A stretch of 64,000 nt of DNA from Nitrosopumilus sp. (GTDB lineage: Archaea > Thermoproteota > Nitrososphaeria > Nitrososphaerales > Nitrosopumilaceae), in NCBI GenBank assembly GCA_965205675.1, contig OZ242186.1, positions 1,120,001 to 1,184,000 on the forward strand, in the 5' to 3' direction. The position numbers were made by a program, and so were the translations under genes. Each line of letters begins with the position of its first letter. Position 1 is the stretch's first letter. The notes under the pieces are model-generated. The model was not told the origin of the DNA and searched no databases. It saw only the letters and a program-made list of their open reading frames with translations. Below are positions 35,404-40,306 of the stretch, one piece after another.

Positions 35404-36549
35404 TAGTTTAGGCATATAAATTTTGAATAAACTGTCAAGTATTTTAACCCAAAAGATCTAGATCGTAGAATCAATTAATGAAACCATGTCAAAGAGTACA
35501 AGACAATCCAAGGTTTCCTCTGGGAATCAATTCATGAAAGGTACAAGCATTAATTTTTTGAGAAAAGCATGCAAGAATGAAAAAAATGCAAAAGCAAAGA
35601 TAAGATTAAAGGCTGCAATACTAAGAAAACAAAATATTCCGTATTCTGTGATATGTGCAAGTCTGGATGTCATACCATCAACTCTGTCCTACTGGCTAAA
35701 TCGAATGGATGAAGAGGGAATATCTGCATCACGCCGCAAGAAATATTCTGGTTCTAGATGTTTTTTAAATGAAAAACAACTAGTATCATTAAGAAATGAT
35801 CTGATTTCAGGTCCTCAGAGATTTGGATTTAATCAATTCATGTGGAGTACAAGAATGGTAATTACACATGTGAATAAAAAATACAACACCCTATACTCTG
35901 CACGTGGAATGCGAGAATTGCTACACAGAATTGGATTTTCATCTAAAAAACCACGTCCCACACATCATAAATCAGCCTCAAAAGAGGAACAAACCCGTTT
36001 TAAAAAAACGCAAAAAGGAGTATCAAAAAATATTCCAAATTGGGACATATCACGCTATGTCTGGATGAGTCAACAAACAAGATAGCACCTAACATAAAGC
36101 GCGGATGGTATCTTGCAGAGAATAACATTACCACACCAATTAATTACACTCGAGAAAAATTTCAATCATTTGGTGCATTGGGGAATAACGGTGTATTTTT
36201 TTGCAAGTTCTATGATAAATCAAACACAGACTCATTTCTTGATTTCTTAAAATCCTTGCAGAAACAATTTGGTAAGAAACTGTTATTATTTGCAGACAAT
36301 GCATCATACCACAAAAGTGTCAGAGTAAAAGAATTTCTCAAAGCATCAAAAAGAAATGTAATCATAAGATATTTTCCTGCATACACTCCAGAACTCAATC
36401 CAATTGAGGTACAGTGGAGAGAAGAGAAAAATGGTAATGCCAATACATTCTTTGCAAATGGAACTGAGATGAGAAAACACATGCAGAAGAGACTAGATAA
36501 TGGAGACGTTCGAGTTGTGAAATTATTCAAATATTTAATGCCTTAACTA
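35404..36549 (+). mobile_element. IS630-family element (two-ORF form)
   Basis: TA duplication at 35402-03 and 36550-51; IRs TAGTTTAGGCAT / ATGCCTTAACTA. Confidence 0.92.
35486..36546 (+). CDS. IS630 transposase (OrfA 35486-36085 + OrfB to 36546; probable -1 frameshift)
   Basis: HTH part, then LDES, DNASYH, YTPELNPIE; slippery TTTTAAAAAAAC at 35998-36009. Confidence 0.88.
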
Positions 36550-36551
36550 TA

Positions 36552-36958
36552 TTACAGATGACAAGTCACATGATTCAAAACATTTCATATCGCTAGTTGA
36601 GCAATCAAAACAGTTTGGCAATGTCACTAAAACTTTGGCTGATGGTGCATATGATACAAAGGATAATTTTTCATATCTGTATTATGATAATGATATTCTA
36701 CCTGCAATTAAAACAAGAAAAAACTCATCAGTTGTAACTGATTGTTATCCTCGGAGAAAGTCTGTTTTGGCACAATTGTATAACTTGGATCTATGGAAGC
36801 TCAGCGTAAGCTATGGGGATAGATGGATTGTAGAGGGAGCATTCTCTGTATTCAAAAGAATGTTTGGAGAGCATGTGACATCGCACAAGAGAGAAAACAT
36901 GATTCATGAATTGAAAATGAAAGTTTGTCTGTACAATAAAATGATTGCAATGCAATAG
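36552..36958 (+). pseudogene. IS5 transposase, C-terminal half
   Basis: ADGAYDT, YGDRWIVEGAFSVFKRMFG; joins 35403 in frame once the IS630 is removed. Confidence 0.9.
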
Positions 36959-37131
36959 AATCAGAAATGATTTCAAAGCATCAAAGAGTGTTGATGGTTA
37001 TTTGGGGTTGGGAAACAAAGCAGTACTTGGGAAAGTAATCCAATTTAGATCACAAACTAACCATTATTTCATCAGTTAAACAACAAATTTGGATAGAAAA
37101 AGCTTGATGGAGGTGTGCTGCTCCATCAAAT

Positions 37132-37498
37132 ATGAATCATAATCTTGATTTTGCACACCTTAGAAATTCAACAACTCAAGCATTTGCAAATATTGCTAAA
37201 ATAATGTGCACAACATTGTCGTTTTCTACTTCACAGAAAAACAACGCACAATACAATTCAGAGGACATTCATCATTTCATCATGGAGTGTTGTCTTGGTA
37301 ACTGTTATTCTGAATCAACTACAAAGAAATTGAAGATAAAAACAGAATGCATCATTCCATCAGGCTCTTGGATTAGAAAGCAGATTGCAAAAATACCGCA
37401 AGAGAAAATGATTATTGCATTATCTGATGAAATTGATCAAACAATTACACACCTAAAGAATTTGGGAATGTTGAATCATCCAGTAACTGTTGCAATTG
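37132..37498 (+). pseudogene. ISH3-like transposase, N-terminal part
   Basis: Truncated at VTVAI (first DDE strand) by an IS3 end. Confidence 0.78.
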
Positions 37499-37635
37499 TG
37501 GTCTGGTCCCCTCTAGAGTAGGACCGGTAGCATACATACACTTTTCAGATAACTTGGGAGGCTTACCCTCATGGTAAAGAGCAAATTCACATCAGCAGAA
37601 AAGTCAAGAGTGGTTTTAGAGTCACTAAACACAAA
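37499..37635 (+). mobile_element. IS3 left-end fragment (same element as 12301-13542)
   Basis: Near-identical to reverse complement of 13406-13542; orfA start MVKSKFTSAEKSRVVLESLNT. Confidence 0.92.
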
Positions 37636-37679
37636 TCTATGTGAAATCTTTAAAAACATTTGCACTCTTTTGCAACACA

Positions 37680-37855
37680 TGAGAATGGCTACCGCTAGAG
37701 ATGATCCCATTCATTTTCAAAAGATGAAACCGGACACATATCTATTCGAGGATCTCCCTCAGTACCATTCTTCATCCATTTATCAGAACCATGCCGCAGT
37801 TACAAAACGAGGATCTCCCTCAATATGTTTAACGAGGATTATAGTTCTGATCATA
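37680..37855 (-). ncRNA. Candidate bridge/seekRNA of the IS110/IS1111 element
   Basis: Two closed stem domains (37782-92 with 37841-51; 37682-94 with 37760-71), each associated with a copy of TGAGGGAGATCCTCG; position matches the IS1111 ncRNA layout. Confidence 0.65.
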
Positions 37856-37863
37856 ATGTTTCA

Positions 37864-38973
37864 TTATGCATTTTTGATGCACTGGTAAAATGTCATGTTG
37901 TTTTTTAACATCCAGTAAATTATTCTCAACAGTTTGGATGCTGCTGCCACTGCAGCTTTTGATGTCCCCCTCTTTTTTGCAAGACGTTTGTAAAAATTTG
38001 TAATGGTGCTGTTTTTTGCATATCTTACATGAGAATGTACTGCCTCCACCAGAACCCAGCGTAACATGCTACTTCCTCTTCTTGTTATGGACCCATGGCG
38101 TATGGTGTCAGCTGAGTTTCTCACCGATGGTACAATTCCTGCATATGAACACAGTTTGTGAGAATCTGAAAATCTTTCGATATTGTCAATTTCAGAGGAT
38201 ATGGTTAATGCAGTAAATCTTCCAACACCAGGTATTGATTCTAAGAGTTGTGCATTAGAATCATGTTTTAGAGCATCCTTGATTCTCATGTCTGACTCTG
38301 CGATTCTATCATTGATTGATATTGTCATCTTGAGATATCCATCTATTCGATAGTCATCTAATCCCAACAGTTTGTGCACATATGAATCAGAAAATGCAGT
38401 TCCTGGTATCTTGATTGCATTTTGTAAGGTTATACTGTGAATCAAATTTTTCATCCTTGTCCTGTTGCGGACTAGTTTGGTTCTATATCTCACCAGTTGT
38501 CTTGTTTGCACGGTATCTTTTTCTGGTACATGACAAGATGAGATGTATCCTCCTCTTAGCAAATCTGCCAAGATGTGAGCATCAATCTTGTCAGTTTTTT
38601 TCTTTGATGCTGCAATTGCTTTTGTGTGATATGGGTTTGATAGTATTACATCAAATCCTAGTTCGTCTCGCAGAAACCTAAACACGCCATACCAGACAGA
38701 TGATGATTCCATTACACATTTTGAGTTTTTTGGGATTGCAGAAAATACTTTTTTGATATCCTCTCTGGTGTTTGTAATTTTTTCATTGAATAATGTATGT
38801 CCTTTATCATCCATTGTTTCGACCTGTAAGAATTCTTTGTGCAAATCAATTCCGACATAGGTCATGGGTTTTGTCTTTCTAGTCCTAATGATTTTCTTTG
38901 GTTTTTTCTTGGAGGTGTATCTTTTAGAAACTATAGAATCAGCAGTACCATCTAAATTTCGTTGTTTATTCAC
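37864..38973 (-). CDS. IS110-family DEDD recombinase/transposase, intact
   Basis: YVGIDLHK, VMESS, KKTDKIDA, LESIPGVG, SYAGIVPSVRNSA; alternative ATG start at 38865. Confidence 0.93.
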   Translation of the reverse strand: MNKQRNLDGTADSIVSKRYTSKKKPKKIIRTRKTKPMTYVGIDLHKEFLQVETMDDKGHTLFNEKITNTREDIKKVFSAIPKNSKCVMESSSVWYGVFRFLRDELGFDVILSNPYHTKAIAASKKKTDKIDAHILADLLRGGYISSCHVPEKDTVQTRQLVRYRTKLVRNRTRMKNLIHSITLQNAIKIPGTAFSDSYVHKLLGLDDYRIDGYLKMTISINDRIAESDMRIKDALKHDSNAQLLESIPGVGRFTALTISSEIDNIERFSDSHKLCSYAGIVPSVRNSADTIRHGSITRRGSSMLRWVLVEAVHSHVRYAKNSTITNFYKRLAKKRGTSKAAVAAASKLLRIIYWMLKNNMTFYQCIKNA

Positions 38974-39403
38974 ATATGGTTACTTTGCAACAAATATCAA
39001 AAGAGCAGAGATATCCCAAGACATTTGGCAAATCCAGGACCAGTATCGCAGAAGGTGGGGAATAGAGACAGGTTATGCATGTGTGGAAAAGTTCAGACCA
39101 AGGACATGCAGTGTTAATCCGACTGTCAGGTTTTTGTATTTTTTCTATCCTTTGATTTTGTTTAATGCATGGGTTATTGCAAATTGTACGTTGAAGAATA
39201 TTTGTTCTATCAATCACACAAATCCAATAATTACAATTGAGATCCTCAAGTGCATCTTTGGAATTATTATTGTGGGTTTCTTTAGAAGAATAAAATCCCA
39301 ATACTATTTGGAAGATGTCAGGTAGTTACTTTCCCAAGTACTGTAGACAGATACAAACAAGCCCATTTTTATTTCATGTAAAAAATTAACAAGTGAAAAT
39401 AAG

Positions 39404-40306
39404 TTATCTACGCTTAGATTTTTTAGAGGTGGTCTTTTTCTTTGCAGGGCTCTTTTTAGAGGTGGTCTTTTTCTTTGCAGGGCTCTTTTTAGAGGTGGTC
39501 TTTTTCTTTGCAGGGCTCTTTTTAGAGGTGGTCTTTTTCTTTGCAGGGCTCTTTTTAGAGGTGGTCTTTTTCTTTGCAGGGCTCTTTTTAGAGGTGGTCT
39601 TTTTCTTTGCAGGGCTCTTTTTAGAGGTGGTCTTTTTCTTTGCGGTAATTTTTCTTCGATTTGCCAGTAATTCTTTGAGTTTAACATTAGCTTTATCTAA
39701 AGACTTTTGTGCAGATTCTTCGGTTTTGATTCGTTTTTGTAATTCTTTAAGAAATTTTTGGACAGATTTGTGATTTGCAGTTTTAGTTTCACGTAAAGAA
39801 GGCTTTGATTTAGTTTGTTTTTGGATTTTAGAGACAATTTTAGATTTAATACCAGAGAAAGCAGCGACATCGTCTGAAATCTTTTTTGCAGTTTTTTGCC
39901 TACTTTTAATTTCTTCAATTAATTCACGCACATGGTCATTTAATGAACGTAATCTAGTCTCAGCATTTTGTTTTTCTATGAAATTATCAGCAAATTCAAT
40001 TTCTTGTTCAATCTGTTCGATGGTTTCTTTTTCTCTAGCAAGTCGTTCTTCTGCTGTAGTAACTAGTCTTCCAATACTCTCCAATTGGGAATTTTTCCTA
40101 TCAATAACAGTTGAGACATCAGCAGATTCCTCTTTTTCAGACTCTATTTTTTTATCAAGCAAGTGTAAACCAGAAGAAGAGTGTTTTTCAGCAGAACGGA
40201 ATTCTTTAATTTGTTCTTCAGCTTTTTTACGTAGTTTAGTTGCTTCTTGTTTCTTTTGTCGTAGTTGAACTACTATTTTTTCTAATGATGCCAATGATTG
40301 TATCAA
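39404..40306 (-). CDS. Coiled-coil protein with Lys-rich (KKKTTSKKSPA)n tail
   Basis: ~225 aa of heptads followed by a perfect 11-aa repeat tail. Confidence 0.8.
   Translation of the reverse strand: MIQSLASLEKIVVQLRQKKQEATKLRKKAEEQIKEFRSAEKHSSSGLHLLDKKIESEKEESADVSTVIDRKNSQLESIGRLVTTAEERLAREKETIEQIEQEIEFADNFIEKQNAETRLRSLNDHVRELIEEIKSRQKTAKKISDDVAAFSGIKSKIVSKIQKQTKSKPSLRETKTANHKSVQKFLKELQKRIKTEESAQKSLDKANVKLKELLANRRKITAKKKTTSKKSPAKKKTTSKKSPAKKKTTSKKSPAKKKTTSKKSPAKKKTTSKKSPAKKKTTSKKSPAKKKTTSKKSKRR
39420..39643. repeat. 33-bp tandem repeat, 6 copies plus a partial
   Basis: TTTTTAGAGGTGGTCTTTTTCTTTGCAGGGCTC units. Confidence 0.93.

Follow-up and report, generated by a model that had tools for sequence, protein, structure and literature searches.

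A probable guide RNA in the 3' non-coding end of an IS1111-type insertion sequence from a Nitrosopumilus-like archaeon

The 64,000-nucleotide stretch of DNA analyzed here (the window) comes from an ammonia-oxidizing Nitrosopumilus-like archaeon and carries, on its minus strand at 37635-38981, an intact IS110-family insertion sequence (IS) of the IS1111 type. Comparison of this element with its relatives led us to the view that the non-coding region (NCR) downstream of its transposase gene very probably encodes a working guide RNA that directs insertion by the transposase. A first-pass annotation, made from the letters of the sequence, had proposed a bridge RNA or seeker RNA (seekRNA) in this 3' NCR of an archaeal IS110/IS1111 element, to be checked by collecting copies and homologs, building a covariance model and looking for covariation of the loops with target sites; the fold proved to be conserved and the loops to covary with the insertion flanks, and the proposal is supported by the protein and by the anatomy of the element as well. 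The window's genome, a single 2.01-Mb contig with a G+C content of 33.7%, contains about 25 full or partial copies from three families of such elements. Family A, to which the window's element belongs, is present as three full copies at 99% identity (the window's counted), a fourth copy split by another insertion and a 5' fragment, and the sister families B and C, with proteins that are ~60% and ~57% identical, respectively, have about ten copies each.

The evidence that carries this reading is the relationship between the predicted RNA and the DNA on either side of the elements. In the first of its two modules (module 1), a hairpin stands above an internal loop (loop 1), and for each match to the covariance model described below (R1) the loop strands, as given by the alignment, were compared with the DNA to the left of the left inverted repeat (IR) and to the right of the right tip. 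Flanks and IRs were located by anchored patterns; an automatic terminal-repeat search gave mostly spurious repeats. Across the matches, the loop strand 5' of hairpin 1 was the reverse complement of the right flank, and the strand 3' of it was identical, in the sense orientation, to the left junction. Examples of the right-hand relationship (with ^ marking the insertion point) include L089, in which the reverse complement of the guide, ACAATCATAAC, agreed with the flank AT^ACAATCATAAC at 11 of 11 positions, and L095, in which the reverse complement AGTTGTCTGAC and the flank AT^AGTTGTCTGTA shared a run of nine. The guides of L088 (GUUGAUAACU, DNA GTTGATAACT) and L034 (UUAUCAAUUUG, DNA TTATCAATTTG) agreed with their DNA at 10 of 10 and 11 of 11 positions, as did the left guide of L077 with its left junction (10 of 10). 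For family A itself, ATATGTTTAA, the reverse complement of the window's loop 1 5' strand UUAAACAUAU, had exact runs of 8, 7, 7 and 6 nucleotides with the right flanks of the four genomic copies. When guide types were shuffled among the site groups in 20,000 permutations, the mean longest exact run of the right guide (20 types, 45 sites) was 6.82 as observed versus 3.26 +/- 0.30 as permuted (maximum 4.54), and no permutation reached the observed score. The left guide, scored at six variable positions (15 types, 48 sites), gave 4.35 of 6 versus 2.48 +/- 0.26, again with none of 20,000 permutations reaching it, in a test that leaves out sites abutting the right end of another element and sites without an anchor, and in which one split copy was patched by hand. 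The strands of loop 1 therefore covary with the insertion flanks in many relatives.

The covariation is also seen between close relatives. In the hybrid copy in the window's genome, UGAAAUUU replaces the UGUAAUU of family B and the site reads AATTTCA instead of AATTACA, and in a metagenome-assembled genome (MAG) of another Nitrosopumilus, two copies that are 99% identical to the window's own element (L061 and L062) differ from it in one guide base, carrying AAACACAU versus the window's AAACAUAU, and are inserted at ATGTGTTTAG. Natural re-direction of this kind, by swapped guide bases among close relatives, has been described for IS1111 seekRNAs (Siddiquee et al. 2024, PMC11187229). In families A and D (the latter a sister family in another genome), the RNA has a U against a top-strand C; pairing with the bottom strand would be a G.U wobble. 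The right guide had been glimpsed in the first-pass annotation as UAAACAUA (37824-37831), one mismatch from the plus-strand TAAACACA of the right flank, and this was borne out. For the left flank, the annotation had pointed to UUUGUAAC, one mismatch from the plus-strand TTTGCAAC. The segment is present and the left guide lies within it, but its sense-strand match is to GT^AAC; the likeness to TTTGCAAC is incidental and is missing from the left flanks of the three other genomic copies. The annotation had also held that both target-like segments match the same strand, unlike canonical bridge RNAs, which was wrong: each of the two segments matches a different strand, and their order is that of the published IS1111 seekRNAs, whose leading segment pairs with the target's top strand and whose trailing one pairs with its bottom strand (PMC11187229). 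With this, the apparent anomaly disappears.

Uninterrupted target sites were available for two sister families, and a comparison of empty with occupied sites allowed the boundary between element and target to be placed. For family B, unoccupied copies of a host repeat (repeat X, a degraded DDE-type IS) read ..AAATCCAAT^AATTACAATTGAG; across the insertion, occupied copies read ..CCAAT^AACTATATGTGAA...CACATGGAT^AATTACAA.. and unoccupied ones ..CCAAT^AATTACAA... Family D was found as about 14 copies in the other genome (G061, L067-L080), inserted at a single position of the terminal repeat in a miniature inverted-repeat transposable element (MITE) of ~82 nucleotides, which has 42 matches in that genome and terminal inverted repeats GTATG(T/A)ATCA...TGATTCATAC. 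The insertion point lies 10 nucleotides from the right end of the MITE, and of 12 MITE copies examined (L121-L132), ten were empty (..TTTGCT^TGATTCATAC) and two held family D (..TTTGCT^AACTATATGTGAAG..). From these comparisons it follows that the elements start with AAC(T/C)A and end with ..GAT, and that the 3' strand of loop 1 spells the left junction, namely 2-7 target nucleotides and then the first four nucleotides of the element. Insertion of families B and D is site-specific and without target duplication, with at most 1-4 nucleotides shared between empty and occupied sites; what the two comparisons have in common is AT(AA), or only T. Two target models were discarded: AATAACT-AT-AATTACA for family B had no matches, and neither had TTGCTAA..GATTCATAC for family D, AAC(T/C)AT belonging to the element, as the MITE copies show. 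The target of family A is short, ~TGT^ATGTGTTTA, and its empty site had no matches in the window's own genome; the exact ends of family A follow by analogy from the empty sites of B and D, and each is uncertain by ~2 nucleotides. Four DNA sequencing runs gave no contig spanning the family A insertion and no circle junction; the loose contig ends in them showed nothing but tandem junctions (the right end of C to the left end of A, and an A-type right end to a B-type left end) and host repeat X in uninterrupted form.

These sites bear on an explanation in which the 3' NCR has no guide role and is a structured 3' untranslated region, a terminator or a set of DNA-binding sites for the transposase, its likeness to the flanks coming from bases that the element itself owns. 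Speaking for it was that AACC/AACT, which had at first been taken as flank, proved to be part of the element, and that, taken singly, the sequence folds only modestly better than its shuffles. Since bases matching the guides lie to either side of the insertion point in uninterrupted targets, the flanks are nevertheless target and not element; in addition, the guides of close relatives differ and their flanks differ accordingly, and the compensatory changes and near-invariant U.G pairs described next point to an RNA of this strand. We regard this explanation as close to refuted and its probability as very small indeed.

The conservation of the fold was assessed from a first alignment of eight diverged RNAs, representing the three families and the hybrid copy of this genome and four RNAs from other genomes of the genus, whose accompanying proteins are 45-62% identical. 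The RNAalifold consensus comprised the outer stem, inner stem and hairpin of module 1 and the hairpin of module 2, with compensatory changes in nine of 25 predicted pairs. Model R1, built on 20 of those 25 pairs and run over 61 loci, gave 48 matches, of which 46 were full length at 98-145 bits, and most began at or directly past the end of the transposase match. No R1 match was found in six loci titled as bacteria or Thermoplasmatales (proteins 28-37% identical) or in seven loci of IS110-type relatives with the long NCR at their 5' end, and while the 3' ends of the bacterial relatives fold, no alignment of them to this RNA was achieved. Over 35 distinct rows, 99.6% of cells pair, a percentage that is inflated, like the others from this alignment (A2), by its having been fitted to R1; 11 of the 20 pairs change on both sides, none of 500 shuffles reached either value, and sliding the partners by 1-3 columns lowered pairing to 29-48% of cells. 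The U.G closing pairs are near-invariant (33-34 of 34 rows; 33 of 34 for hairpin 1), which, together with the compensatory changes, argues for an RNA of the transposase strand and not for a DNA site. In hairpin 2, three pairs have changed on both sides, one of them being GC in 23 rows and AU in 11. On the strength of the compensatory changes and G.U pairs, we infer that the 3' non-coding end encodes a conserved structured RNA.

Several details of the fold had been anticipated in the first-pass annotation. The 15-mer UGAGGGAGAUCCUCG does occur twice in the RNA sense of the minus strand, at the hairpin positions given in Table 1, and extends to 18 nucleotides at 94% identity between its two copies; the stem AUCAGAACUAU/AUGGUUCUGAU closing the first domain was recovered in both the minimum-energy and the consensus folds. 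The proposed closure of the second domain, AGAAUGG/CCAUUCU, exists and takes part in the fold of the single sequence, but an equivalent helix was found in just two of 25 distinct relatives, both of the same subfamily, and it was rejected as a feature of the family: the conserved closure, GGAUGAA/UUCAUC, occurs in 22 of the 25 in the form GGAUG(AA)/(UU)CAUCC, with AAAGGAC/GUCCUUU and GAUGAAG/CUUCAUU as changed forms. We prefer GGAUG/CAUCC over the GGAUG/UGUCC chosen by RNAalifold as the probable closure of module 2. A possible third small hairpin was noted by eye beyond the two modules, and its motif, CUAGCG..GC, appeared to be kept in the relatives compared, likewise by eye (UAGC-GAAA-GCUA, AGUC-GA-GACU and AGC-GUCG-GCU).

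The element and its protein are those of the IS1111 group. Its NCRs measure 229 nucleotides at the 3' end versus 116 at the 5' end, the longer one being downstream of the transposase gene, and its layout is that described for IS1111-type elements in PMC11187229 and PMC11208160. Subterminal IRs in that group are 7-17 bp long with short terminal extensions, which the family A element fits with 8 bp and extensions of 5 and 3 nucleotides. The transposase matched Pfam PF01548 (DEDD_Tnp_IS110; 1e-28) and PF02371 (Transposase_20; 3e-23) and the NCBIfam model NF033542, 'IS110 family RNA-guided transposase', at 250 bits with a cut-off of 140, and its entire length could be aligned to the IS621 and ISCro4 transposases of known structure (E 3e-12). 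The catalytic motifs GID, (M)E, TDkiD (TDxxD) and nSa (Ser) align with those of IS621, for which the residue roles and the mapping D11/E60/D102/D105/S241 were taken from PMC11208158, the chain numbering being offset by 2 in the alignment. At the C-terminal motif GL-P----S(t)G the protein reads GIVPSVRNSA, so that the spacing and the Ser are retained and SA replaces SG/TG; an occasional TA at this motif is mentioned for the IS1111 group (PMC11187229). Judged by these matches, the protein is an IS110-family RNA-guided transposase of the DEDD/Ser type.

Table 1. Features of the window's family A element, its predicted RNA and its flanks (window coordinates)
Feature	Position	Strand	Sequence	Basis or remark
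Insertion sequence, family A, 1347 bp	37635..38981	minus	AACCA + TATGTGAA ... TTCACATA + GAT	identity limits among 4 genomic copies
Left terminal extension, 5 nt	38977-38981	minus	AACCA	precedes left IR; inferred from empty sites of B and D
Left subterminal IR, 8 bp	38969..38976	minus	TATGTGAA	read from sequence; shared by families A, B and D, among others
Transposase gene, 333 aa plus stop	37864..38865	minus		ATG at 38865; Pfam, NCBIfam, alignment to IS621 and ISCro4
Two-module RNA (predicted), R1 match	37718..37858	minus		127.6 bits, E 2.5e-27; begins 6 nt past stop codon
Module 1 (target-binding, predicted), outer stem	37841-37851/37782-37792	minus	AUCAGAACUAU/AUGGUUCUGAU	11 bp, one G.U; within 37782..37851
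Module 1, inner stem, imperfect	37834-37837/37794-37797	minus	CCUC/GCGG	helices 1 and 2: 6/10 pairs changed on both sides
Loop 1, 5' strand	37823..37832	minus	UUAAACAUAU	guide complementary to top strand right of insertion point
Hairpin 1, 15-mer	37808..37822	minus	UGAGGGAGAUCCUCG	helix 3: 99.4% of cells paired, 2 pairs changed on both sides
Loop 1, 3' strand	37798..37807	minus	UUUUGUAACU	sense copy of left junction: target ..TGT and element's first bases AACC
Module 2 (donor-binding, predicted), outer stem	37770-37777/37722-37729	minus	GGAUGAAG/UUUCAUCU	within 37722..37777
Hairpin 2, 15-mer	37747..37761	minus	UGAGGGAGAUCCUCG	in this subfamily, a repeat of the hairpin 1 15-mer; all cells (100%) paired in helix 4
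Loop 2, 3' strand	37735..37746	minus	AAUAGAUAUGUG	sense copy of element's right end (ATAGAT), continuing into AUGUG
Possible third small hairpin	37686..37697	minus	UAGC-GGUA-GCCA	seen by eye
Right subterminal IR, 8 bp	37638..37645	minus	TTCACATA	read from sequence; conserved
Right terminal extension, 3 nt	37635-37637	minus	GAT	after right IR; inferred from empty sites of B and D
Right flank	37625..37634	minus	TTGTGTTTAG	start of 137-bp piece of repeat Y; genome comparison
Left flank	38982..38995	minus	ATTTGTTGCAAAGT	from a different, degraded DDE-type IS (X); genome comparison

For module 2, a donor-binding role is only probable, given that just one strand of the loop resembles the donor and that part of the matching stretch may be held in an inner stem instead. 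The annotation had placed AUAGAUAUGUG after one copy of the 15-mer, and it was indeed found after the second copy (37735-37745). Of 13 distinct combinations, 10 have the last six nucleotides of the element within the 3' strand of loop 2, as one of three states (ATAGAT, ATGGAT and AAGGTA), and the other three combinations are discordant; a segment for the second donor strand was not found, the likeness to the donor being confined to one strand of loop 2. Beyond the copy of the right end, the loop 2 strand of family D runs on into AAUU, the left tip, as in a circle junction. In families A, C, L103 and others, the continuation instead corresponds to the opening 4-6 bases of the right target flank; the pairing partner of the AUGUG after the right-end copy is a presumed one. 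A narrower reading, that of a seekRNA in the strict sense, would leave guiding to module 1, with module 2 as a scaffold for protein binding, the donor ends recognized via the subterminal IRs and the loop 2 string unpaired. The 82-nucleotide RNA of ISEc11 alone supported movement, and did so better than the 154-nucleotide form (PMC11187229), and the one-strand likeness, its restriction to three states, the discordant combinations and the possible locking of part of the string in the inner stem all agree with that reading. On the other side, the states of loop 2 track those of the right end, including a change inside the C-like group (L091 ATAG versus L095 ATGG), module 2 is conserved as well as module 1, and donor-binding nucleotides have been predicted in IS1111 bridge RNAs (PMC11208160). 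On balance, we consider it unlikely that module 1 is the only guide.

The mechanism that we propose, for a working guide RNA with a target-binding and a donor-binding module, is as follows. An RNA of ~140 nucleotides, possibly with the third hairpin beyond, would be read from the transposase strand and would fold into two modules, each with a stem, an internal loop and a hairpin. The 5' loop strand of module 1 would pair with the top strand of the DNA directly to the right of the insertion point, and its 3' loop strand with the bottom strand directly to the left and then with four nucleotides of the element's left tip, thereby spelling the left junction that insertion makes. The 3' loop strand of module 2 would spell the right tip of the element (AUAGAU) and, beyond it, depending on the subfamily, either the left tip, as in a circle junction, or the bases with which the right target flank begins. 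Bound to this RNA, the DEDD/Ser transposase would bring the circular form of the element to the target and recombine the two without target duplication. Transcription of the RNA, its binding to the transposase, the circular intermediate and the chemistry of strand exchange are presumed here by analogy with ISEc11 and IS621.

Much of this proposal has parallels in the described systems. As in ISEc11, ISPa11 and ISKpn4, the guide lies in a long NCR downstream of the transposase gene, and as in IS1111 seekRNA elements generally there are subterminal IRs, short terminal extensions and a transposase in the 330-350 amino acid range; the RNA sizes, ~70-80 nucleotides for module 1 and ~140 for both modules, compare with 82 and 154 nucleotides for the IS1111 seekRNA (all PMC11187229). 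The host here, in contrast, is archaeal (Nitrosopumilaceae), no likeness to the bacterial relatives was detected at the level of sequence or model, the Ser motif is SA and not SG/TG, and the guide RNA is a prediction from sequence. Shared with the IS110 bridge RNA of IS621 (Durrant et al. 2024, PMC11208160) are the two modules for target and donor, the internal loop under a hairpin and guides that switch from one DNA strand to the other across the crossover; the IS621 transposase is homologous, with DEDD and Ser motifs, and extra bases of its RNA pair with partner DNA after exchange as handshake guides (Hiraizumi et al. 2024, PMC11208158). Unlike in IS621, the RNA is at the 3' end and not the 5' end, the guide order is reversed, there is no clear shared core, a second donor guide was not found, and it is the guide pairing with the bottom strand that runs 4-6 nucleotides into the partner, the published handshake being 2 nucleotides beside the right target guide and right donor guide (RTG/RDG; PMC11208158). 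We speculate, as a possibility with the odds somewhat against it, that the 3' strands of both loops read 4-6 nucleotides past the crossover into partner DNA, loop 1 spelling the left junction and loop 2 the circle junction or the right junction, so that the RNA would template the recombined products and not the substrates only, and that the frameshifted family C elements arose in this lineage with guides retargeted to the left tip of sibling elements, building composite C-B units that would move together and with the target specificity of B. If true, this partner reading would be a far longer handshake than the 2 nucleotides of IS621, and on the bottom-strand guides.

Sister families B and C show arrangements of their own. 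Nine of the ten C-type copies aligned directly abut the left tip of an element from family B or A (a C-A tandem lies at C1:953179-954612, C1 being the contig of this genome), and the right guide of family C (reverse complement ATGTGAAAAC) matches the left tip of the sibling element, where family C inserts. The C-B pair has six extra bases, AACCAT, and is located in B-type target sites, as if moving as one unit. The transposase frame of family C is split into two overlapping pieces (e.g. C1:927558-929891, 996554-998887, 1501394-1503727 and 1665085-1667418). In family B, eight of ten copies (e.g. C1:202721-203659) have an early in-frame TAA in the transposase gene, with the two open copies at C1:1108267-1109247 and 616022-617002; the RNAs of the broken copies are identical to those of the open ones, and thus the broken copies could be moved in trans. 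More distant IS110-family genes of the same genus and order (L037-L041, L045 and L056; 29-38% identity) have a long 5' NCR with a shared motif, ..GCTGAC(C/T)CCT..GTGAATGGGGC.ATCCGAGCTGC..GATAG.., and these 5' NCRs are presumably 5' bridge RNAs of the IS110 type.

Besides the inflated pairing percentages, the discordant loop 2 combinations and the missing second donor segment, several points weigh against a working guide RNA. Taken alone, the single sequence folds into its two domains with a z-score of -2.56, and three of 200 shuffles fold as well, so that the case for more than chance rests on the comparisons between relatives. The RNAalifold pairing GGAUG/UGUCC excludes GGAUG/CAUCC, leaving the inner pairing of module 2 ambiguous. 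A search of 36500-40000 with the curated Rfam models at E <= 1 returned no relevant family, the only matches being SNORD24 and GcvB, far under their gathering scores. The right guides of some single-copy relatives (L032, L100 and L102) are weak, with runs of 3-4 nucleotides, and the register of guide to flank moves by 0-2 nucleotides among subfamilies. Finally, the window copy is itself a poor example: its right flank has a run of only 6 nucleotides with its own guide, the left target bases agree at two of six positions, and its two flanks stem from different repeats.

The flanks of the window copy could be traced by genome comparison. Repeat Y has 16 exact-match sites in the genome, the window's included, and its uninterrupted copies read GCAATGT^TTGTGTTTAG; it lies at 37499-37635 of the window and at 15 further sites (e.g. 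C1:201279, 570247 and 812963) that are near-identical over at least 137 bp, and only a 137-bp piece of it adjoins the element. The remains of IS X lie at 37021-37498 and 38984-39343, interrupted by the IS110-family element, and include an open reading frame (ORF) on the plus strand (38864-39325) that contains ..QYRRRWGIETGY..; other copies of X are at C1:814838 and C1:1667521-1668729, and family B also targets X, at about 39220 of the window. Since the flanks come from different repeats and are not collinear, the site was rearranged, either once the element had inserted or through recombination between copies. A 12-mer in the 3' NCR, AUGUGUUGCAAA (RNA sense, 37669-37680), resembles the left flank ATTTGTTGCAAA (38984-38995), but we judged this likeness to be chance, many 11-12-mers of equal match quality being in the repeat list of the window. 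The non-collinear flanks, the absence beside the element of ~480 nucleotides of X that are present in another copy, and the imperfect fit of the guide to its own site would suit a dead relic of a guide-RNA-using family that no longer moves. We think this rather improbable, as the ORF, both IRs and the entire RNA are intact, the four copies are 99% identical, which favors recent activity, and recombination between copies would itself leave rearranged flanks.

Other features of the window lie to either side of the element. An ORF on the minus strand (39404-40306) encodes a 300-amino acid, lysine/glutamate-rich, coiled-coil-like protein, whose C-terminal KKTTSKKSPAK repeats are encoded by about seven tandem 33-bp units at 39420-39650. 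On the plus strand at 35486-36546 there is an IS630-like transposase in two overlapping frames, with helix-turn-helix (HTH) domains at 35486-36085 and DDE_3 at 36040-36546; either its gene is broken or its frames are joined by programmed frameshifting. Beyond it, at 36635-36958, lies a DDE_Tnp_1 fragment.

With respect to distribution, R1 matched 20 of 151 sampled genomes of Nitrosopumilaceae, in nine of 27 genera, with as many as 20 and 21 matches in single genomes (G080 and G105, respectively), and none of 131 genomes outside the Nitrosopumilaceae in a phylum-wide sample; the record titles of the related loci are those of Nitrosopumilus, Cenarchaeum and Nitrosopumilaceae MAGs. Bridge RNAs have been predicted for 93% of catalogued IS1111 elements (PMC11208160), binding of seekRNAs to the transposase and their reprogramming have been demonstrated (PMC11187229), and IS110 recombinases also occur in archaea, which are believed to have gained them by transfer (bioRxiv 10.1101/2024.06.21.599552). 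Our literature search found no paper on bridge or seeker RNAs of Nitrosopumilus, supplements being outside that search, where ISfinder-wide tables may list archaeal relatives. As far as sequence comparison can tell, this is a known kind of system in a new lineage, seen only in Nitrosopumilaceae among the genomes sampled.

The principle is not new, and RNA-guided recombinases of the IS110/IS1111 type are under development as genome-writing tools. To these the lineage would add a compact natural system from a mesophilic, AT-rich archaeon, with at least 20 natural guide variants on one conserved scaffold, which amount to a ready-made map of the positions that are free to change. For the organisms themselves, specificity for other repeats (the end of a MITE, the tips of sibling elements, other IS) helps account for the nested and tandem IS arrangements in symbiont-like Nitrosopumilus genomes, one of which is named in a survey as the most IS-rich among archaea (PMC13343696).

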